Shown: piece after piece, positions 4,272 through 44,526 of the stretch
How positions within the stretch are numbered: position 1 is the stretch's first letter
Layout: each line of letters opens with the position of its first letter
Source: Octopus vulgaris
Lineage: Eukaryota
Assembly: GCA_951406725.2 (NCBI GenBank)
Contig: OX597823.1
Span: 48,236,001-48,300,000, forward strand
Direction: 5' to 3'
DNA: 64,000 nt
Made by a program: the position numbers and the translations under genes
Notes under the pieces: generated by a model
What the model was told of the DNA's origin: nothing
Database searches by the model: none
Seen by the model: the letters and a program-made list of their open reading frames with translations, nothing else

Positions 4272-6344
4272 TTCTGTTTAAACATGTCGAGTTTACTGAG
4301 GCAACAAAACTTAGTGAAATTACTAAATTCTATTTTTTGGTAGACGTTTACTGGAATAAGCATGAAATTCAAATTTGTAGTTAAAGGTTAAGCATTACAA
4401 ATTCATAAACAAGAAATGCTGCGAGCAACATATGTTGTCAGAGCCAAGACTCGTGTGCTAAAAGAAGAGAAAGCGAAAACTGAACTAGGATGGTGAAGGC
4501 ATGACACAGAAACAAAGCAACAATTTGATCTTTGACAAATCTGAAAAGACTTTTGCTACTTGATTTCAAGCAGATGTGTCTGTTTTTGCGTCAGCCCTTC
4601 ACTCAACTCTGAGTAGATTTCTTGTCCTTTTTCAATCTCAGATTATTTATAAATATATTGGTAGTTTATATTAACAAACAAAGTTACTCATCTTATAATA
4701 ATTATATTCCCAAACAAGACGATGCTCCACTTTGCCTTGGCTGTGCTGGCTAAAACAAATGAAAGAATTTCTCATTCACATTTAACCTACAAATGTTCAC
4801 CCTCTTTTCTAACAAGAATTCTAGTTTTCTGACAACAAATTCAATCTGCTAATTACTCATTGCTTTCAATTATTTCCTTTAACACTACTTTCAGGAGGAA
4901 CTGGTTCAAGTATCATTTGAAGCTATAGGGTTTAAAGAATCTTCTATGCATTGATTTAATCTTAATAATTCTCATCACTTTACAAAAAACATTTTTCGAA
5001 TTCAAAAGCAATAACAAAATAAAACAACCTTTCTTTCTGCTTTTCTTTTAACCAATGTCTTAACAGCTACTTTAGATAGCTTTGGGCAGCCATTACTAGG
5101 TAGTACTAAACTTAAATAATCTGCCAACAAATCAACTCTTACACATCTTTTAAAAACATGTACAATATTTTGTCTTTCTCGAGTGAATACTCTTCATTCT
5201 TCAAATTAGTAATTTACAATTTTTTTCAATTTTTCAACAATATTCCCTCAATCATGCACACATCTGCATCTTCCTCTTCTCTTACAAGGCCTTCACAATA
5301 TAAAGCACTTAAAGATGTGCTTGGCATCTTCATTTGCATAAAAACATAAAACCTATACATATCCAGAAAACTGAATCATACCATATTCATAAGTTGCAGT
5401 TTGCCATGTGGAATTCTACAGGGAGGAATCGTTTCATCGGTTTAGTGTCTAGTGATTCTGTCTGAAACTACTTAGCAACCATGCTTCTCACAACCCAAAC
5501 CCACTTCTACACAGAACACCATCACATCTCCTTATCTCTACTTCTGTCTGCAACCACTAACATTACCACTGGAACAACAATACACTTCACAAGCCCAACA
5601 AACCAAGCCATCCCACCTTCATCACTTGCATTTGTCCCACTCATCTCAAGACCACATTTACTCATACACAATCACACATGCACACACACACACACACACA
5701 CATGCACATGCATTCATGCACTCATACTTGCATGCACACACACATACACATACATGCGCACACACACAAAAGAAGAACACAAAAGAAGTTCACAACAGCT
5801 GTTTCAGCAGAATTTTATTGATGCATTCTTAGATTACATCATGGCAAAACCCAAAACCCACCATCTTCAGGTAAATTTTAAACATAAATAAAGCGGAAAT
5901 AGAAGGTGACCAGTTCACTATCAACTATAGTGGAACAGACTATGAGTATATTTATGCATATAGATATGGGGAATTAATGCAGAACTTATAGCTTTTGTAC
6001 ATTGACTAACATTATTGGTGCATGAGGTAATGTACCTACATATTTACATAAAAACCTAGAAAAGGCAAAAGAAACTGATAGGGTTTACTCCAAATCCAAT
6101 CTATTAGTGGCACAGTGAAGATTTGCAAGACTTTCTGAAGATTCTCAAACTGAGATTCTTTACGTGAATAGATACACACACTTGGGTGTATGCATTGGCA
6201 CTTCTCAACTCAACCACATATTTACAAATGCTGGGAATGCTCTTAACTCAAAAAAGCCTCAACGCTTTGTTATCAGCTGGCTTGAACTCTCTCAAGAAGA
6301 ACCTAAATAAAACTCAATGGAAAACATACATACATACACACACA

Positions 6345-6550
6345 CAAGGGGTACTGAAAAGTTCTTGGCTTTGGGTAAAAGAAAATACAGAAGGATCAGT
6401 TAATTATGATTTTATTCAACATATTCCCCTCTCAGATTCTCACACATATTGCAGTGGTCCTTCAGTTTTCCAAGCCCTGTAAAAGAGCTCAGAAGTTTTG
6501 GCCTCCAACTAGGCCTTTCATGATACCCTTAAAGTCAGGAACTTTAGCAT
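6345..6550. mobile_element. Tc1/mariner-type MITE
   Basis: Degenerate TIRs ...gtactgaaaagttcttggcttt / aaagtcaggaactttagca. Confidence 0.55.
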
Positions 6551-7189
6551 GTTGTTCCTATAAGAGTGCAACTTGTTCTTCAGTTACAAAAAATTTGGCT
6601 GGCATTTCAAAGGTTAAATGGTAATAAGTATCAATTCCATTCACAATAACCATTGATATGATAATGTTTCTTGGCAATTGTAGAACTCTGCAGAAATTAC
6701 GGAGTAATATTTGTCTAGTATTTAAGAACTGGTTTAACAATCCTTTTATCTTGTACCACAATATCAAAACTGATACATCATCAGAGCTCACAAGAATATC
6801 AATAACTTCTTACCAACCCACAGTTATTAAAACTAGCTCCATTTCAAGATAAAGTCCGCTTAAATTTCAGATGACCAATATTTCAATAATCAGATTTAAA
6901 GATCATGCAATTAGCTTTACATATAATGGTTTGTGCTCTAATTCTTCAAGTGAGTTGAATAAAGGTGTAGTGGATACAAATATTAGAAAGTTATAATAAA
7001 AGTATAAGCGGACAATTCCTTTCTTTTCTAGTTTCAACTATCTGTCTTCTTGTTTAATTTCTTTGAAATTCTGAGCTATTCTATAGATGAACTTTCATCT
7101 TAAGTAATTAACTTTGCATTAAATGTTTGATACAGAATTAACAATGTGGATCATCACTATGATCCCACATCCATCTCCCACTCCACAAC

Positions 7190-7197
7190 ATCATCAC

Positions 7198-7256
<59 letters not shown>

Positions 7257-7485
7257 CCCCCACATCGCCATCATCAGTGTAATATCTGCATAGCAGTACA
7301 TTTTCATGAGACGTGTATCGTGTATCTGTAATCATCTGTGAAGTTTAATTTCCTTAGTCTAGAATATAATGAATTCATTTCTTTTGACCAGCTTCTATCC
7401 TGATACAACTGCAGGAAGCATCACAATCATATGCACATACACACATACATACACACATACATACATACATACATACATACATACA

Positions 7486-7517
<32 letters not shown>

Positions 7518-7790
7518 CACCCACACACACACATACGCGCACATACATACACAGATGCAAGCATACATATATGCCCACATTCACACATACAAACATTCAT
7601 ATATGTTGTTTTGATTATTTTAACCATAATAACCCAGGCCATACTGGAATACCATTGACATACATGGAATCATAAAATTATCTATTAACAAACTTACTGA
7701 CAGATCATTCCAGTACATTTCATATATATATATATGTATGTATGCATGTGTGTGTATGTATGTATGTATGTATGTATGTATGTATGTATG

Positions 7791-7821
<31 letters not shown>

Positions 7822-7830
7822 GTATGCATA
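7190..7830. repeat. (CAT)n, (TACA)n and (TATG)n microsatellites
   Basis: Direct inspection. Confidence 0.9.
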
Positions 7831-7835
7831 TAAGT

Positions 7836-8240
7836 ATATAATTAATTAATAAGGGTGAGAGAATTAGATACTAATTTAATAGTATATTTATTCCACACCA
7901 AGTGGCCTAGTGCTACGAGAAACCTGGATTATTATAATATTTTATAACATATTATAATATTTTCACAAAATAAATATAAGAGAGTGGTCACTATATTGAT
8001 CACTCTAGCACCAGTTAATCCAAAAGGTTTCAACCACGAAAATACATGTTTCCCATGAAAGCCAGTACGACTGTTAGCTCATACGGACAGGGCAAATAAA
8101 AAATAACAAAAATACAGATTATTTTGGGACAATTGTTTCGCTATTAATGAATTAAATGTAATATTACTTACAATAATCCATTTGTAGCTCGTCAGCCAAG
8201 ACTATCTGGATGAAATCCACTCAATCACACGCCAAAAATT
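7836..8240 (-). mobile_element. PLE-like terminal repeat fragment carrying a hammerhead ribozyme
   Basis: Abuts a TA/TATG array; contains the HHR at 8124-8199; aagtggcctag terminal motif shared with the 56987-57131 element. Confidence 0.55.
8124..8199 (-). ncRNA. Type I hammerhead ribozyme, intact core
   Basis: Minus strand: TTGG-CTGACGA-GCTA...TAGC-GAAAC-AATT-GTC-CCAA; stem I TTGG/CCAA, extended stem II, palindromic stem III ACAATTGT, GUC cleavage triplet. Confidence 0.85.
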
Positions 8241-8552
8241 CATATATATATCAAAAGGATATGTTATAATACTATTCCACAGCCATACCAACAATCCAAC
8301 ATACCTCCATCATCAGCTGCCATATGGATATCATTATGGTTTCGACACCTGGGCAGTACCATTCAACCTAGCAGTGTCAACAGCACTAAAATAAGTGTTG
8401 TTTGGGAACAAATAAACAAACCAAAGAAACCACAACTTTCAAACACATTTACTCACTCTACAACCGTATATATACGCACTAACATCAGTAAGTACATAAA
8501 TGCAAAACAAGGTGGAAAAAATAGTATTTGAATACTGAAGGCATTGATCACA

Positions 8553-8592
8553 ACTGTCTAATGAACGGGAACATGAAACTCTGAGTAACAGT
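8553..8592 (+). ncRNA. Minimal type I hammerhead ribozyme, degenerate
   Basis: ACTGT-CTaATGA-ACGGGAACaT-GAAACTC-T-GAGTA-ACAGT; stem I ACTGT/ACAGT, stem III ACTC/GAGT, GUA site; G5->A in core and one stem II mismatch. Confidence 0.7.
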
Positions 8593-8713
8593 CTTTTTGT
8601 ATGATTTTGTAACTTTAAAAAAAAAAGTATCTATATATATATATATACCGGAGTAAACACATAAATGTGAAACAAGGTGGAAAAAAGAGTACTCAAATAC
8701 CAGTGGTAGAGTA

Positions 8714-8835
8714 ATATGCTTTATTTAAAGCAGCAGAAAATTCAACAAAACCTGTTACTCTGAGTTTCCTGCTGCAACGGGGAACTCAGAGTAACAGGTT
8801 TTGTTGAATTTTCTGCTGCTTTAAATAAAGTATAT
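8714..8835. repeat. ~56-bp-arm near-perfect inverted repeat of the same HHR-bearing PLE terminus
   Basis: gctttatttaaagcagcagaaaattcaacaaaacctgttactctgagtt / aactcagagtaacaggttttgttgaattttctgctgctttaaataaag; the flank 8660-8700 repeats 8495-8535. Confidence 0.9.
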
Positions 8836-8841
8836 ATATAT

Positions 8842-10157
8842 ATCATCATCATCATCATCATCGTTTAGTGTCCGCTTTCCATGCTAGCATGGGTTGGACG
8901 GGTCAACTGGGGTCTGTGAAGCTGGAAGGCTTCGTCAGGCCCAGTCAGATCTGGCAGTGTTTCTACGGCTCGATGCCCTTCCTAACGCCAACCACTCCGC
9001 GAGTGTAGTGGGTGTTTTTACGTGCCACCTGCACAGGTGCCAGACAGACCTAGCGAACGGCCACGAACGGATGGTGCTTTTACGTGTCACCGGCACGGGG
9101 CCAGGCAATGCTGGCAACGGACACGAACGGATGGTGCTTTTACGTGCCACCGACACGGGGCCAGACAGAGCTGGCAACCAGCCACGAACGGACGGTGCTT
9201 TTACGTGTCACTGGCATGGGGGCCAGCCGAGGCTGGCAACGGACGCGAACGGATGGTGCTTTTACGTGCCACCAACACGGTTGCCAGACAGAGCTGGCAA
9301 ACGGCCACGAACGGATGGTGCTTTTACGTGTCACCGGCACGGGGCCAGGCGATGCTGGCAACGGACACGAACGGATGGTGCTTTTACGTGCCACCGACAC
9401 GGGGCCAGACAGAGCTGGCAACCGGCCACGAACGGACGGTGCTTTTACGTGTCACCGGCACGGGGGCCAGCCGAGGCTGGCAACGGACGCGAACGGATGG
9501 TGCTTTTACGTGCCACCAACACGGTTGCCAGACAGAGCTGGCAAACGGCCACGAGCGGACGGTGCTTTTACGTGTCACCGGCACGGGGGCCAGCCGAGGC
9601 TGGCAACGAACACGGACGGATGGTGCTTTTACGTGCCACCGACACGAGGCCAGACAGAGCTGGCAAACGGCCACGAATGGATGGTGCTTTTACGTGCCAC
9701 CGACACGGGGCCAGACAGAGCTGGCCAACGGCCACGGACGGACGGTGCTTTTACGTGTCACTGGCACGGGGACAGGCGAGGCTGGCAACGAACACGAACA
9801 GATGGTGCTTTTACGTGCCACCGACACGGGGCCAGGCAGAGCTGGCAAACGGCCATGAGCGAATGGTGCTTTTACGTATCACCGGCACGGGTGCCAGACG
9901 AGGCTGACAGCGGACACGAACAGATGGGTCACTTAACCCCTGCTTTCTGATATATGATTTGATTTTGATTGTTCTCACTGGTCTTGCCGGGTCTTCTCAC
10001 GCACAGCATACTTCCATAGGTCTCGGTCTCTGGTCATTTCCTTGGTGAGACCTAGAGTTCGAAGGTCGTGCTTCACCACCTCGACCCAGGTTTTCCTGGG
10101 TCTACCTCTTCCACAGGTCCCCTCAACTGCCAGGGTGTGGCACTTTTTCACACACTT

Positions 10158-10162
<5 letters not shown>
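8842..10162 (-). mobile_element. RTE-clade LINE 3' end (ORF C-terminus, repeat-containing 3' UTR, (GAT)n tail)
   Basis: Minus-strand peptide VEGTCGRGRPRKTWVEVVKHDL...DRDLWKYAV is typical of the RTE C-terminus; 3' UTR ends ...AAACGATGATGAT. Confidence 0.85.
9010..9930. repeat. ~61-bp minisatellite, ~15 units, with dimer and 244-bp tetramer higher-order periodicity
   Basis: Unit gccagacagagctggcaaacggccacgaacggatggtgcttttacgtgYcaccgRcacggg; the block at 9061 recurs at 9305. Confidence 0.95.
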
Positions 10163-10200
<38 letters not shown>

Positions 10201-10420
10201 TGAGTGTATTTTTCCCTTGTTAACAATTAACACAGAAAAAATAGATAAATAGTTACCAGGGTATCAAAAAGTCACACAAGTAAAGAGGTTGTAACTCCTT
10301 GTTTTTTAAAGGTAGAAACTTCGGGTTTATGCGGAATTTTTTTGTGTCAGTTGTAAAAGTATTTGAATTATACCTGCGTTAAACTCCATATATATATATA
10401 TATATATACATACACACATC

Positions 10421-10542
10421 AGGTGTCTAAGAGTTTGTAAGTCAGGGAAAAGACGCACTCATATATTTGTCAATAGAGTGGGTATATTACTCAAAGTGTA
10501 CTGTATTATATATCCATCACGGCTGATCTTACTCATCAGCTT
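10421..10542 (-). ncRNA. Degenerate hammerhead-like motif with long stem II insertion
   Basis: Minus: CTGATGA-GTAAGaTCAG...CTGACTTAC-AAAC (G of GAAA missing; stems I/III decayed). Confidence 0.35.
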
Positions 10543-11011
10543 CGCACAAGGAATACGATGGAGTGTTAGGTAACAATCTGATTATATAACCTTACGTTCA
10601 TCAGAGTTAGCTGATATGGAAAGGAATATGGTGACTGTTCTTTGTTGTTGGAAGTGAATGGACACATCCATTTTGTAGTTACTATGAAAAAGATGGTGAA
10701 ACGAAAATGAGCAGGGGATTAGGTTTGGAGTTATGCCTCTTGATTGGGTTCACTGTAACACTGGTAAGAGTTATCTTGAAATGTTTGTGGGAAATGCATG
10801 TGTTATTAAGTATGGTGCTCCTTTGGGGGTGGAGTGTGTGATATGTGTAGTGGTATCATGTGTATAATTTTTTGCCAGGAGTGTAGGTATATATAATTGT
10901 GTTCATCAGTCTGTTTTCTTTCTGTATTGGTTAAGATCAGGGGGAGCTTTATGTTAGCGTGTAGGGGTACAATGTGTGTGGGAGGGGTTACATATGTAGG
11001 GGTATATATAT

Positions 11012-34801: not shown

Positions 34802-35369
34802 TTGGGTTGTCCGGAAAGTTCGTGCCGATTTATAGTAGCTTACTTTTTGACTTATTTCAGAACATGGTTGAGTCCATAAAATAGGTCTTGACTACACCTC
34901 CATTTAGTGAACAGTTTAAGCTATATTTTTGTGGAAGAAGGTTTATGTTCCTATAACCTGTGTTAATTCTGTATCCCTTTAAAATGGAAGATAAGAAAAA
35001 GTTCATTTTCAGCACTTGATGCTTTGGGAACCAGACAAAAATTGCTGCAGCTCGGCTGGGATGTGTTACCCCACCCTCCATATTCACCATATATCGCCCC
35101 TTCGGATTTCCACTTATTCAGATCTCTGCAGAACAGTCTTAATGGTAAAAATTTCAATTCCTTGGATGACGTAAAAAGATACCTTGATGAATTCTTTGCC
35201 ATGAAAGCACATCAATTCTGGGAAGAGAGTATTTTCAAGTTAAAGGAAAGATCGAGACACATTGTGCAACAAAATGGTTCATATTTGGTTGATTAAAAAT
35301 GTAATGGCAAGTATTTATTGACCTTTTTCTTTCCTTTAAAAATCAGCACGAACTTTCTGGACAACCCAA
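34802..35369 (+). mobile_element. Internally deleted mariner transposon
   Basis: TA-flanked ~30-bp TIRs ttgggttgtccggaaagttcgtgccgattt / aaatcagcacgaactttctggacaacccaa; transposase C-terminus LPHPPYSPYIAPSDFHLFRSLQNSL (YSPDLAPxD motif) joined to a short N-terminal stub. Confidence 0.95.
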
Positions 35370-36146: not shown

Positions 36147-37241
36147 GATAGATAAAGCAAATAAGTAATAAGGATGTTCAGGTGTCAGTGCATTACGGCC
36201 ATTTCAAGAGGTTCCATTTAATTGATCAATGCAAACATTACATCAATTTGAAATAAACTACACTTCTCAGTTACATACGACCATGTAAATTTCCAACATA
36301 CAGGATATTCCGTTAGAATTTTAGTCAGTACTACAGACTAAATACATTGCTTCTTTTTGCTATTATTTTGCTATTATTGTAGGGAAAAAATACCTAAATC
36401 CTGCTATAATTTAGAGTGGCTGAATGAAATAATGGGATCAATAAAGGGGAATGGTGACATAGCTACTTTCGTTTCTATCCTTATCACATTCAACAGACCC
36501 AATGCAGCAAGTAGTCTACATCCCATTAAAATTAAAACCATTGGGAATTGACAATTAAGTTCTTGTTGGTGGAGATAAATTAATGTCAGATATTCTTCCA
36601 TACTCCTATTTCATTATGACCATAAAATCAGCCATACTTATATAAAAGAATATGTCTCAGAAGATGCTAGTTAGATAATGATATAAAGATGAGGTGATAA
36701 CCTGAAAGAGGAGGGACAGGAGTAGCTTAACATATTATGATTATTAACTAAAAGGGCCTAAAATGGAAAGCAAAGATCATATTGAGATATAAGCATGTGA
36801 ATTAGGAATACAGTGGGGAAAATGTGTATCTAAAGTTAGTAAAGTTTATCTATTAAAATATTAAGATTTAGAAAAGTATTTAAGGATCCAGTAAGAGAAG
36901 AGGGATAGATAAAACAATCTAAGCCATAAGTGTGGGGTATTTCTATATAGAAAGAAACCTCATAATGCTTATCTCTAGGATAATGTTAAGGTGGTAATGA
37001 TAAAATTGTTCAACAATGAATCTATAATAAAATTCAGATATTATCCAAGTAGGGGTATGCATTTTCTTCTGAATCGAAACCAAATATTAAGGGCTAAAAA
37101 TAAGATAAATATTTCTATAACAGGTACACTTATTTAAAAACCTTTGAAAATATATATATTAAAAAATTACCAACATTTTCAAAAAATCTGAATTGATATA
37201 AGATATAAAAATATCATATATATATAGATATACATATATAT

Positions 37242-40200
37242 ACAATAAGCTGCCAGGTGTAAACCATTCATTTTATCATCCATTAACGACAACCAATTTC
37301 CAATTTCCAGGAGGAAGGTGCTATATGGTAGCATACCAAGATGATGGATAAAATAACACTGGATGTTTTGTTAAAGCACATGCCTATACCCAGTAGGAAA
37401 GATTATATACATGATCTTTTGGAGGAAATGAATCAATTTGTACATAGAATGCAGTGGAAAGCTTTCTTTTTTGACAAGGAGCTTAAACCTGAATATGGCG
37501 ACCTACTAAGAAAAGTATTCAAATCTAGAAGGAACCCACCAACCAACAAATTTGAAGAAGAATTATATAGTATAGTCAAGGATGCGAAGTTCAGGAAGTA
37601 CCTTAGAAGGTGTAATCAGAAAATTACTTGTCGACTTCAAGAATGCTCTGGGGATACTTGTTCCAGCAGACAAAACAAGTAACATTTACGTTGTTGATAT
37701 TGAACTATATAAGTCTGTGATTAGGAAAGAATTACGCAGCAAATATAGACATGCTAGTAATGACGTATTAAGAAAAATTAACCATACAGATATACAAATC
37801 GTCCGAGATCTAGCCATAGATGATAGAGCCAAACCCTACATCCCCAGAAAACCCCGGATTTTGCTTAAGGGCCATAAAACTAATTTTCTTATTGACCCCT
37901 CAGTTAGATTGATTTGTCCTTCTAAATCCGATATAGGCATTATTAGTAAAAAAATCATTGATAGGGCAATACCTGTCCTTAAGTCTAAAATTAGATTAGC
38001 CCTTGGATGGTTTAAGCTTCTAGAAATTAGTAAGAATAGTAAATTCTTGCAACTAGACATAGAGAGCTACTGTGCCACTATCAACCAGATTGTTCTTAAT
38101 CAAGTCCTGATTTTTAGTATGAAATATTCTGATTTGTCCTGATGTGAAATAGATATTATACTTACTGTGCAAGCCACTCTAGTAGATTTTGATGGTAGAT
38201 TATGGAGTAGATTAGATAGGGAGAATGTATTTGATATAGCAATGGGATCACATGATTCTGCTCAGGCCAGTGACCTAGTAGGAATATATATCCTTTCATT
38301 AATCTAGTCTTCCTTTCCAAAAGTAACAGGGGTTCTATATAGGGATGACACTTTATTTTTTCTAGACAGAAGTAATAAAGTATAGTTAGAAGGCACAGCA
38401 AAAATTTCTTTAGGCTTTTAAAAATTTTTTGACAAAACATTACTATAGGTAAAGATTATTGTAGAGTGAATTTTCTTGACGCTACCTTCTGTCTTGTTAC
38501 TAGATTATTTGAACCATTTCATAAGCCAAATGATCATATTAAGTACATTAACGTAACATCCAACCATCCACCCTCGATTATACGAGGACTAGTTAAGAAT
38601 ATTTCTACAAGAATCTCTAGATTATCTGCTAACAATAAAATTTTTGAATCTCATGCATCTTATTATAATGCTGCTCTAGCTAGGGCTGGGTACTGTGAAA
38701 AAATCCAGTATATGCAAGAAGCAGGCATACACAACACTGGTAATTCCTCCAATTGTGATGCACATTGTATATCAACATAACGTTACCATTTGAGAATTCA
38801 CTCAGATAAAGAATAGAGGCTAGAAAGAATTGGTCATATCAATGAACTACCAACGAAAACTCATAGACACACACGACATAATAATTCAACTGCTTGTTCC
38901 AATCCTGTGCAACACACTCGATCAAATATGCCTAACAACAGATATAGGAATCAGGATGTCATCTGGTTCAACCGATTTTTGGTTTGCATGTTTCAAGATT
39001 GCTGGAAAATTTTTTGCTGCTTTGGACAGGTGTTTTCCTAAATCTAATCGGTATCATGCTATTTTTAATCGACACACCATGAAGGTATCCTATGCCAACT
39101 CTGCTAATTTAGAGCAGCTTATGCATCACATAAACAATAGCAAAATGTGGCAAAGGTTCAGTAACCCATGTAGTGGATCTAGCGAGTGTTTGCATCTAAA
39201 TACCAACCAAGGAGATGTAAACCACATTGATAAACACCAACTACGACCAATTTGTAGTAGTAGAAATATTTATGATACAGCTAGCATGGTAACAATGCCA
39301 GTATGTGGAGTTGGGACTGCCTTATATACAAATAAATGCGATAAATGCTCATGCAGAGAAAAATCAAAATGTCCTTTGATGAATCTCTGTATGAGTACAA
39401 ATCTTGTATATGAATGTACTGTGCAAACAAGAGGAGGTTCCTATGTTTACATTGGGTAGACGGCTGGTTCATTTAAGAATCATTATCGTAACCATGTTGC
39501 CAACTTTAAAACAATCAATAAGAAACATTCAATATCTTTGGCAGATTTTGTATGGTGACTGAAGGAGGATAAAATGGAGTACAGCATTAATTGGTTCATA
39601 GTAAGGTATGTGAAACCAAGCAATATAATTTCCAGGAGATGCTGTCTCTGCTCCAAGGAATTCCTATCTATTCTGTGGACTAACGAGAAGATAATAGAAT
39701 TTCTGAATGACTCTCGAAATGCCTACATGCATATAAATGCGAGAATGAATTTTTAGCAACGATTAACTACTTTGAGGTATGGATGACTTAAATTTACTTT
39801 TAACCTCTCCATTCTTATAAACACTAAGTTGATAAATAACTTGCTTTGTGATCATGAGTGCATCAAACCTCACATGTGCATATGCTCACATTTTTGCAAA
39901 TGCTTGTATGAGTGAGTGTGCTTGCACCATGCAGCTTGTCTGAGGGCATTTATACATCCATACCTGTTAATTGTTATTTTTTATACTTTCCTTGCTGGAT
40001 TGCGTGTTCATTTCTCTTTTTGTCATCTGTGATTTTATTTTTGATCTTCTATATAAATGAAGATATTTCCTCTGTCTGGCTGCTTTTCTCTCTACAAAAC
40101 AGAAAGTTAGATTGCGGAACAGTCATTTTAATGAGTTTTAATTATTTATCACCCAACGAGATACATCTGCACCACTGGATGCTCCTGAATCAGTTGTTGA

Positions 40201-40300: not shown

Positions 40301-40333
<33 letters not shown>

Positions 40334-41119
40334 GAAGTATATAGTGTAATTATAAAATATAGATATATATAAATAAATATAAATACCATATTGTATTATA
40401 TTATATCATTATTACTATAGAGAGAAGTTACAAGCTCCTTCACAATCTATAGAAATTACACCAGTATATATGAAGGTATATAGATATACAAAATACAATA
40501 ATGTAATATGAGATAAAAGAATAAATAAAATAATGTAAAGTAGAATAAATGGAGAAAATATTTGTATAAAATTTCAATAAGGGATTTATTTGTAAAATGG
40601 AAAAAAAGGAAGAAAGAAACAAAGATAAAAATTTTACATTTCGAATGCCATAAAATATGTACATGATATAAAAAGAGAGATAAAAGATCAAAAAATAAGG
40701 ATAAGTCAAGGTATTCATAACAAAAGCTAATTAAAAAAAACAATTGAAAAATAAACTAAATAAGATAAAGATACCATTGGAAATGGTTTTATAAGATATT
40801 TGTAAGATATATTATTATAGGCACAGATGTATGTAGAATCATAACAGTTCTTAGCAGGTATTTATTATATTTAAGGAAGGTGTAGGATCTGGTAACCCAT
40901 TGTAAATATACTTATCATGACTGATAAGGAAGAAAGTCTTAGCACCAAAGGAGAAGTAATGTAATCTAGATATTGGAGGAATGCAGATTAAACAGGTAGG
41001 GGTTATAAGAGGGCAATATTACATAAAATTCCATTCAATAGAGGGTATGATATTAAAGATATGACACACCAAATAACTTATGTCACCAAATTATAGTATG
41101 ATATGTATAATATTATTTG

Positions 41120-41548
41120 TCTCTAAAATATTTGAAGGTATGGGTGATTCTATGCACACAAGATATCCCAAAGTTTAATATATTATTTATTAGGTTATTC
41201 TTATCTCTATACTTAAAATTTCTGTACAACATAGTTTGCATCCATATTAGCTATCTTTGTATGGCTGAGCTCCTCGTACTATGTCCCATTTAAGGCTAAA
41301 TTTACTATTGCTTTCTTTAAGTTCCTAGATTTTACTAGATAATGATGTACCATTAGCTTTATGCCTAAGTCTAAAAGATGAAAGATAGTTATTAAGGCAC
41401 TTCTTCATATTAATCGAGTGCCCAGTGTAAATAAAGTTACTAGTTTCTGTCATCACTGTATATTTGTAAACAACATTTTTGGCTAAACAGTGACCTAATA
41501 ATGGGCACTGAGATTCTAGTCTGTAATTGCAGCTGGGAATATTATTGC

Positions 41549-41636
<88 letters not shown>

Positions 41637-41644
41637 GGTGGTAT

Positions 41645-41721
<77 letters not shown>

Positions 41722-41890
41722 ATAGTAGTAGTAGTAGTAATAGTACTTCTATCATTCATAGTACCACTCAAGTCCATTGTAGTATTATCATGTGTTTTGC
41801 CACTAACACCTGAATTATGTTTGGCAGTATCAGTGTTTATATTAGTTCTATGGTTCAGGGTTTCTTCATTTCTACTATTATTATGCAGAC
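41120..41890 (-). pseudogene. PLE B linker, Zn finger and GIY-YIG endonuclease remnant
   Basis: CNYRLESQCPLLGHC...VVY...YTG...SSFRL...TSLSSKI*ELK...LKWDI...CKLC. Confidence 0.85.
41545..41745. repeat. (TAT)n/(TAG)n microsatellite within the PLE linker
   Basis: Encodes in-frame poly-Thr/poly-Asn on minus. Confidence 0.95.
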
Positions 41891-41987
41891 AATACAGGAC
41901 AGACTTGGTGCCTCAACTTAAGCATCTAATTCAACTGAATCTTAATTATTTCTCAACTTGTCAACTGTACTTATACGACATTAACAA

Positions 41988-42710
41988 GATGGAAAGGGTA
42001 AATATGGAATTTTCTCTAAAGGATATCCCCATTCATAGTAAGGATAAATTCATGTGGCTATTAACCCATAGGATTAATGAATTTGTTAGGAGGATAAGGT
42101 GGATGGTTTACCATCATGAAGCTAAGATGAAGAAAAAAGACCTGGAAACATACAATAAAAATTATTATAAGATTTCAAAAGCAGAAAAAATCCTCCACCT
42201 AGCTCACTACTGGAAAACTTTGTAAAAGATTTATTCAAACTAATATCTAATATAAAATTCAAGGAACACCCACTTAGGAGAATCTTATACCTGAGGAACT
42301 TAAAGACTTAATTAAATTGCTACAGAATAAACTGGGAATACTTGTGCCAACAGACAAAACAATGAACTTATATAGATTAAACTATGAAACCTATAAAAGA
42401 CTAATATTAAAAGAGCTTAATGCCAAATATAGAGTAACCACAGAAAAGAATCTCTTAGATATTAACTTGGAAATTAAAGAAATTATGATGGACTGTGACT
42501 TGGTAGATAGAATGGAATCCAGGAAGCCAAATGAACCCAGAAATAAGCTCAAAGACCACAAAAGGAATTTTCATGATAATCCCTTTATTAGACTTATTTG
42601 CCCGATTAAATCAAATATTGGTCAACTTAGTAAATCCAATCTTGATACGATATTACCCCTAATAATTCCTAGTTTATCTCTTAAATTATGGTGTGATACT
42701 GAAGAAGTAA
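41988..42710 (+). pseudogene. PLE B N-terminal ORF remnant (truncated before the RT core)
   Basis: FSLKDIPIHSK...FVRRIRW, LGILVPTDKT, LKDHKRNF..NPFIRLICPIKSNIG..SK, LWCDTEEVI; paralogous to 37341-38010. Confidence 0.88.
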
Positions 42711-43540
42711 TAATATTATACATATACTATAATTTGGTGACATAATCTGGTGGGTCATGTCTTTCATATCATACCCTCTATTGCATGGAATTTTATGTAA
42801 TTATTGTCTTCTTATAAACCCTACCTGCTTAATTTGCATTCCTCCTATACTTAGATTACATACTCTCTATTATATGGAATTTTATGTAATATTGCCCTCT
42901 TATAACCCCTACCTGTTTAATCTGCATTCCTCTATTATTTAGATTACATTACTTCTTCAGTTCTAAGACTTTCTTCCCTATCAGCTATGATCCTACACCT
43001 TCCTTAAATATTATAAATACCTGCTAAGAACTGTTATGATTCTACATACATCTGTGCCTGTAATAATATATCTTACAAATATCTTATAAAACCATTTCCA
43101 ATGGTATCTTTATTATATTTTGTTTATTTTTCAATTATTTTTTAATTAGCTTTTGTTATGAATACCTTGACTTAACCTTTTTTTTTTTATCTTTTATCTC
43201 TTTTTTTCATATTCAGTACATATTTTATGGCATTCGAAATGTAAAATTTTTATCTTTGTTTCTTTCTTCCCTTTTTTTCATTTTATAAATCCCTTATTGA
43301 AATTTTATACAAATATTTTTCCCTTTTATTCTGCTTTACATTATTAAATTTATTCTTTTATCTCATATTATATCATTGTATTTTGTATATCTATATACCT
43401 TCATATATACTGTTGTAATTTCTATAGATTGTGAAGGAGCTTGTAACTTCTCTCTATAGTAATCATGATATAATATAATACAATATGGTATTTATATATA
43501 TTTATTTATATCTATATTTTATAATTACACTATATACTTC

Positions 43541-43578
<38 letters not shown>

Positions 43579-44526
43579 TATTTTTATTCCTTATATCAAC
43601 TCAGATTTTTTGAAAATATTAGTAATTTTTTAATATATATATATTTTCCAAGGTTTTTAAATAAATTTACCTGTTATAGAAATATTCATCTTATTTTTTA
43701 GCCCTTAATCTTTGGTTGTGATTCAATAGAAAATGTATAACTCTACTCGGTTGATATCTGAATTTTATTATAGATTCATTGTTGAATAATTTTATCATTA
43801 CCACCTTGACATTATGCTAGAAATAAGTATAATGAGGTTTCTTTCTATATAGAAGTACCCCACACTTATGGCTTAGATTGTTTTATCTATCCCTCTTCTC
43901 TTACTGGATCCTTAAATACTTTTCTAAATCTTAATATTTTAATAGATAAACTTTGCTAACTTTAGATACATATGTTTCCCCTGTATTCCTAATTCACATG
44001 CTTAGATCTCAATATGATCTTTGCTTCCCATTTTTGGCCCTTTTAGTTAATAATCATAATATGTTAAGCCACCCCTGTTCTTTCTCTTTCAGGTTATCAC
44101 CTCATCCTTATATCACTATCTAACTAGCATCTTCTGAGACATATTCTTTTATATAGGTATGACTGATTTTATCATCATAATGAAATAGGAGTATGGAAGA
44201 ATATCTGACATTAATTTATCACCACCAACAAGAACTTAATTGTCAATTCTCAATGGTTTTAATTCTAATGGGATGTAGACTACTTGCTGCATTGGGTCTG
44301 TTGAATATGATAAGGATAGAAACGAAAGTAGCTATATCACCATTCCCTTTTATTGACCCCATTATTTCATTCAGCCACTCTAAATTATAGGAGGATTTAG
44401 GTATCTTTTCCCTACAATAATAGCAAAATAATAGCAAAAAGAAGCAATGTATTTAGTCTGTAGCACTAACAAAAATCTGCTACAAAAATTCTAACGGAGT
44501 ATCCTGTATGCTGGAAATCTCTATGG

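Follow-up and report, generated by a model that had tools for sequence, protein, structure and literature searches.

A 5'-truncated monomer of a 533-bp non-LTR retrozyme with an extended helix II in the octopus genome, likely mobilised by Hydra-clade Penelope-like retrotransposons

The function of hammerhead ribozymes in Penelope-like elements (PLEs) and the mobilisation of retrozymes are both open questions. Metazoan non-LTR retrozymes are described as non-coding, low-GC tandem units with one type I hammerhead each and a highly self-paired monomer, dispersed as monomers and multimers in genomes that also contain PLEs (PMC7229834; bioRxiv 10.64898/2026.07.22.740005). Among the PLEs with a C-terminal endonuclease, the Hydra clade, which includes Hydra-1_Obim, is reported to target (TA)n, to carry a hammerhead in its terminal repeats and to leave tandem and inverted insertions with a tail at one end, and an inverted truncated arm with a one-sided tail is given as the Penelope pattern (PMC8557442). 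For another PLE, in vitro work describes two internal start sites of reverse transcription that define the tail, with both target strands nicked (PMC11167929). Some PLE hammerheads act as dimers: single minimal versions are reported to have failed to cleave, and in those described helix III is weak and palindromic and depends on a second copy, while helix II is enlarged to 6-8 bp (PMC4209133).

The window analysed here is a stretch of 64,000 nucleotides of Octopus vulgaris DNA. On its minus strand, positions 7837..8234 hold a 5'-truncated retrozyme monomer of 398 bp with one hammerhead, which aligns to positions 148-533 plus 12 of the unit found in tandem at locus L009. The copy differs from that unit at 1 of 398 nt and is therefore very young and without sign of host selection. 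In the organism's own genome (2.8 Gb, 227 contigs) the unit repeats head to tail with a period of 533 bp; the top copies are 97-100% identical, and subfamilies down to about 92% identity (92-100%) all have the same unit. A 22-mer of the ribozyme has 1,340 exact genome matches (control, 0). The unit is ORF-less, the longest ATG ORF in its circular form being 54 aa; its GC content is 33%, and 69% of the circular monomer is paired (z -6.8; 0/40 shuffles as low). Arrays contain up to 8 hammerheads per arm and up to 8 perfect head-to-tail units. Sequencing runs from five other organisms contain 50-69% of the unit's sampled words, as counted by word matching.

The arrays thus consist of two or more units in tandem with a type I hammerhead in every one, as is characteristic of non-LTR retrozymes (the window copy being a monomer), and the monomer is non-coding, low in GC and highly self-paired. 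The family is a new non-LTR retrozyme of which the window copy is an ordinary truncated member; its long helix II and long tail make it a variant of the known class. Helix II measures 49 nt here against about 4 bp in the metazoan non-LTR retrozymes as described, and the 533-nt unit exceeds the 170-400 nt given as typical (PMC7229834) while falling inside a reported range of 51-972 (bioRxiv 10.64898/2026.07.22.740005). Unlike the metazoan families in these accounts, the present one, from a cephalopod host, forms back-to-back two-armed insertions with two fixed ends.

At its 5' end the monomer adjoins, at a TA run, a separate and older repeat (8242..8469, minus strand; aligned matches 85-92% identical) that is not part of the retrozyme and has 4,019 first-look candidates in the genome. 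An initial figure of 2,596 first-look candidates was discarded as a count of the retrozyme family, as the query also covered this neighbour. Within the older repeat, positions 8310-8361 (minus strand) contain the pieces of a hammerhead core with their order reversed, GAAA preceding CUGAUGA; the apparent stem I and stem III pairings are preserved in six aligned copies, and the predicted cut would lie about 230 nt upstream of the retrozyme's hammerhead on the same strand.

The hammerhead occupies 8124..8199 of the minus strand and is of type I, with helix I open, the core CUGANGA...GAAA...UH complete and helices I, II and III present. It begins with the 5' arm of stem I (8199-8196) and the core CUGACGA (8195-8189), followed by an extended helix II of 49 nt (8188-8140), which folds as 4 bp, an internal loop, 9 bp, a bulge, 5 bp and a 6-nt loop and whose basal pairs covary. 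GAA (8139-8137) leads into stem III (8136-8129), an 8-nt palindrome predicted to form an intermolecular, double-hammerhead helix (self-duplex -6.4 kcal/mol), the inner pairs of which vary on both sides between families. C17 lies at 8128, with the predicted cut at 8128|8127, and the 3' arm of stem I follows (8127-8124). In the minimum free energy (MFE) fold, stem I is further extended via internal loops by pairing of 8208-8204 with 8119-8115 (8115..8208), an extension that is better paired in an older subfamily. The MFE of the region is -25.8 kcal/mol (z -4.45), and 0/200 shuffles were this low. The initial annotation of this DNA, made from the letters alone, had proposed an intact core on the minus strand cut between 8128 and 8127, and both the core elements and the position of the predicted cut are borne out. 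The inner helix II pairings that it had drawn are recovered in the MFE fold, and its suggestion that the palindromic stem III suits dimer formation gains support from the energy model and from covariation.

Compared with the enlarged helix II of the dimer-acting hammerheads noted above, that of the octopus motif is longer, at about 18 bp in three segments. For the Hydra hammerheads of PMC8557442 (File S2), the core halves are separated by about 11-25 nt and stem III is 3-4 bp with a loop of 1-3 nt, whereas most hammerheads found here have 45-100 nt between the core halves and an 8-nt palindrome. A scan under strict conditions, requiring the core, stems I and II of 4 bp and a palindromic stem III no shorter than 8 nt, found 2 motifs in the 64-kb window, both members of repeat families, and 0 in each of 20 Markov-3 controls. 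A loose core-only pattern, which is unable to fit so long a helix II, gave no excess over chance. Comparison with Rfam hammerhead models, an approach put forward in the initial annotation, returned no hammerhead at gathering score and none at E values up to 10 within 6000-10500, likely owing to a helix II longer than the models allow. Ribozymes of this long-helix-II form, being missed by Rfam, are probably undercounted.

The initial annotation had made its case depend in part on structural conservation among paralogues, and this was found: the helices and the palindrome covary over 20 hammerheads. In this set 92.7% of cells are paired and 47 cells are altered on both sides, with a covariation score of 0.651 against 0.198 for shuffled and at most 0.139 for slid alignments. 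Covariation is seen in stem I, at the helix II base and in the inner pairs of the palindrome; the search pattern itself predetermined the AC/GU ends of stem III. The 20 hammerheads were picked for diversity from 57 distinct anchored motifs, omitting near-duplicates, helix II of 84 nt or more, 10-nt stem III and poor stem I (L121:9064, L108:793), so that the pairing percentage is somewhat flattered; relatedness and selection of motifs also inflate the covariation.

Insertions were mapped at 28 loci, comprising the window, 14 from the top BLAST matches and 13 from the pattern list. The retrozyme has two fixed 3' ends. End A falls at unit position 533 plus about 12, roughly 290 nt beyond the cut. 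It is the window copy's own end (7837..7860, minus strand), where the copy meets a short run of TA next to an (ATGT)n microsatellite. End B (unit 412-417), about 159 nt after the cut, was placed by locus mapping and junctions and is internal in the window copy (7965..7972, minus strand). The two sites are about 130 nt apart (125-132 nt), and (TA)n nearly always follows. Genome-wide there are 896 A-TA junctions (control, 0) and, on the forward strand, 324 B-(TA)n junctions; reverse-strand counts for B were excluded as multiply counted. Two-armed, back-to-back insertions make up 13/28 loci, of which 12 have one A and one B end, while L042 has one degraded arm whose end could not be placed. If ends were picked independently, opposite ends in 12/12 cases would have odds near 0.5^12. 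A single arm is present at the other 15/28 loci, ending at A in 8, among them the window copy, and at B in 7. The 5' ends are variable, with no clustering of genomic 5' ends at the cut site.

This combination of tandem and inverted insertions, 5' truncation and a one-sided tail is the one expected of PLE mobilisation, and insertion into (TA)n agrees with a Hydra-clade derivative. The exception is L038, where the insertion does not lie in a microsatellite and is flanked by a 12-14-bp target duplication. The tail departs from the published 30-40 bp (PMC8557442): it measures about 125-132 nt in the retrozyme and about 120 nt in the ORF-bearing families described below, so that at about 120-130 nt it is three to four times the published length. 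The Poseidon PLE of Anolis, as described in PMC11167929, likewise has an AT-rich target, both strands nicked and extended and a tail pattern set by two start sites; it is autonomous and of another clade, with start sites 30-40 nt apart in the ORF, whereas the ends here lie in non-coding RNA. Sites A and B each follow, at about 15 nt, a predicted hairpin and a similar pyrimidine-rich motif (window 7969-8010 and 7850-7910, minus strand), which together are a candidate priming signal for reverse transcription.

Intact PLEs of the Hydra type are present in the same genome. With a PLE relic of the window as query, many open frames of 800-1,090 aa appeared among the genome candidates listed. Pfam fails to recognise these ORFs, and the clade was therefore assigned by motifs: RWK, DKT, CxCx5C and, at the C terminus, GIY-YIG are all present in 4/4 intact ORFs checked, in agreement with the Hydra definition of PMC8557442, whereas the retrozyme unit, unlike the clade described there, has no ORF. 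In five of the families (L106, L107, L111, L113 and L117) a type I hammerhead stands about 210 nt before the ATG, with a helix II of 57-60 nt and an 8-nt stem III that is palindromic or nearly so; the ends of these families lie 34-37 or 153-157 nt past the cut. Upstream of L109 no long-helix-II hammerhead was found. A generic pattern for a long helix II has 3,639 genome matches (control, 1). Since it is common to the Hydra ORF families and to the generic pattern, the extended stem II is a lineage trait and not peculiar to the window copy. The initial annotation had overlooked that its motif is the cargo of a high-copy retrozyme and that a long helix II is common to many Penelope-related families in the genome.

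Several further features of these elements were observed. The intact Hydra-clade ORFs of L106, L107, L114, L119 and L109 (840-1,090 aa) contain long Asn-rich inserts and exceed the described elements of under 3 kb. Hammerheads with a helix II of 85-100 nt occur at L050:389-520 and L120:7845-7991, and the 85-nt form stands upstream of the L116/L119 family of ORFs, at a distance of about 510 nt. The window itself holds decayed Hydra-type Penelope ORF fragments with DKT, CxCx5C and YIG motifs (37332-39750, plus strand, and 41325-42745), nested in long inverted repeats (36318-37100 with 43695-44476; 40301-40589 with 43285-43573). An earlier assignment of these relics to Naiad was dropped in favour of Hydra on the strength of DKT, CxCx5C and the C-terminal endonuclease.

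A search for an autonomous partner at the DNA level, which sampled part of 4,407 PLE candidates, gave no unit match by blastn in 20 PLE-type loci. In local alignments compared with shuffles, neither of the two parts of the unit outside the ribozyme scored above any shuffle (14 targets each), and over the ribozyme only L111 beat all shuffles (z 4.6). The helper is therefore proposed from shared design and target, as no autonomous element with homology to the unit outside the ribozyme was found in the families sampled. Taken together, the family, its tandem and back-to-back arrays, the two fixed 3' ends, the (TA)n targets, the absence of an ORF and the same ribozyme design upstream of Hydra ORFs make it likely, in our judgement with good confidence, that the window holds a monomer, truncated at its 5' end, of a young 533-bp non-LTR retrozyme that encodes no protein and is mobilised in trans by Hydra-clade PLEs. 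Arrays would be transcribed on the ribozyme strand, and adjacent hammerheads would pair via their 8-nt palindromes to form double hammerheads, which would cut the multimers into 533-nt monomers that may circularise. A Hydra reverse transcriptase-endonuclease could then nick both strands of a (TA)n site, with reverse transcription primed at the two internal RNA sites A and B to give one arm per strand. Copying of a multimeric or circular template would yield arms of 1 to 8 units or more, truncated randomly at the 5' end, and the window copy would be a short one-armed product begun at A. With a very young retrozyme, regular insertions and intact candidate helper ORFs in one genome, dimer cleavage, two-site priming and the role of the long helix II become directly testable.

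Other explanations account for part of these data. The unit could be the pseudo-LTR (pLTR) of an unseen autonomous Hydra element, with the arrays as its truncated products and not an independent replicon. The pLTRs of intact Hydra elements in this genome do share the ribozyme design and the two ends, the sequence after site A bears a weak, by-eye resemblance to the 5' UTR of L107, and the PLE sampling covered only part of the candidates. Against this stand arms that run to as many as 8 perfect units head to tail, no ORF interrupting them in 27/27 family loci examined, and subfamilies 92-100% alike that keep one unit, which therefore propagates as such; we consider a pLTR origin improbable. Still less credible is a spread of the arrays as satellite DNA, by unequal crossover or extrachromosomal circles, with the hammerhead as a passenger lacking current function. 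Tandem organisation would suit it, local amplification of solo pLTRs has been proposed in the account of Li et al. (bioRxiv 10.64898/2026.07.22.740005), and the in vitro activity of such ribozymes is often low. Satellite spread is at odds with hundreds of dispersed insertions that have two exact 3' ends in (TA)n and variable 5' truncation, with the opposite ends on two arms and the target duplication at L038, and with compensatory ribozyme changes between families.

The initial annotation had also raised the prospect that an intronic copy could cut a host pre-mRNA, and a working intronic ribozyme that cuts or regulates host transcripts would be compatible with the intact core, with the overlap of about 43% of Xenopus retrozymes with introns in published figures, and with family RNA that appears to exist and could in principle pair in trans. 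A domesticated intronic hammerhead would be a conserved single copy in a gene; the window copy has 1,340 family matches, 1 difference from the unit and no detected exon in the window. In a Pfam scan 0/147 non-low-complexity window ORFs of at least 55 aa matched, a scan that also missed transposon ORFs and that short exons would escape. The copy is moreover very young and a lone monomer with a disfavoured active fold, and the older hammerhead lying 2.3 kb downstream would pair with it poorly. Host pre-mRNA cutting is thus unsupported and very unlikely; the window copy is probably not a host gene switch and is unremarkable as a regulator of a host gene.

Folding models bear on how such a ribozyme may behave. 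In the window monomer the active fold lies 5.6 kcal/mol above the MFE, whose structure has the core paired to stem III, and the pairing probability of stem III is 0.0. A double hammerhead is predicted at -51.6 kcal/mol against -40.4 for two active monomers (a gain of 11.2); it ties with two inactive monomers (-51.6), and an inactive cofold at -55.4 is 3.8 lower. The predicted dimer is thus favoured over active monomers, and the lone window copy, with no second copy in cis, probably cuts poorly, slowly at best. Activity in arrays, perhaps protein-assisted, is plausible from these models. Of nine Xenopus retrozyme dimers assayed in vitro, 1/9 cleaved and 8/9 did not in the account of Li et al. 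(bioRxiv 10.64898/2026.07.22.740005), and for a PLE hammerhead of an anole a requirement for protein is reported (PMC11167929). A second, older type I hammerhead with a long helix II and palindromic stem III lies at 5789-5874 of the window (minus strand). It comes from another repeat family, whose best matches are 80-87% identical and in some cases back-to-back, and this older copy misfolds; as a pairing partner it was rejected, the heterodimer being unfavourable at -22.0 against -50.5 kcal/mol.

Signs of family RNA were found in 14 runs of one organism, guessed to be RNA by run type, which contain 75-100% of the unit's words; four of these were compared with an array. One run (X1, likewise guessed to be RNA) gave a single 563-nt contig, or 533 + 30, which fits a circle or a tandem array equally. 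In runs X2 and X11, from two studies, every change in loose contig ends is A>G when read on the ribozyme strand: within 30 nt, 9/15 and 10/14 adenosines are altered and no other base (one contig each, compared by eye with genomic L009 and not with DNA of the same animals). The changes span the GAAA core, with A14 and A15.1 altered in both and A13 spared. ADAR is reported to show upstream-G depletion, and hyper-editing of repeats is described as ordinary in octopus (PMC5625713); as A13 follows a G, its sparing is consistent with ADAR. The changes are likely to be ADAR hyper-editing, as judged from their pattern. Genomic copies already in this form were considered and rejected: of 5 matches to the X2-form pattern, 4 were single substitutions in ordinary copies and 1 (L149) was unrelated.

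A tentative and rather speculative extension, which we hold to be possible but doubtful, is that two-armed insertions write their own off-switch. Read-through of a back-to-back array would produce long perfect dsRNA, ADAR would hyper-edit it, and conversion of A14 and A15.1 to inosine would stop processing. A-to-I editing would act as a host brake on a replicon whose 533-nt circular template would be primed by a Hydra reverse transcriptase-endonuclease at two sites, each marked by a hairpin and 130 nt from the other. Confirmation of core editing would link ADAR to ribozyme control. Our literature search found no description of a cephalopod retrozyme, a long-helix-II Hydra hammerhead or an ADAR-edited PLE hammerhead; supplements of PMC7229834 and of the bioRxiv preprints, which may list such families, lie outside that search, as do Repbase and most subscription journals.

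The window contains other repeats as well. Positions 34967-35293 (plus strand) resemble by motif what we take to be the C-terminus of a mariner transposase, with no Pfam match. A near-perfect palindrome of 122 bp at 8714-8835 is MITE-like. It is followed at 8860-9925 (plus strand) by a SINE-like element inside which lies a tandem repeat of about 60 bp, rich in GC, and heads related to this element occur near 11010, 28925 and 58585.
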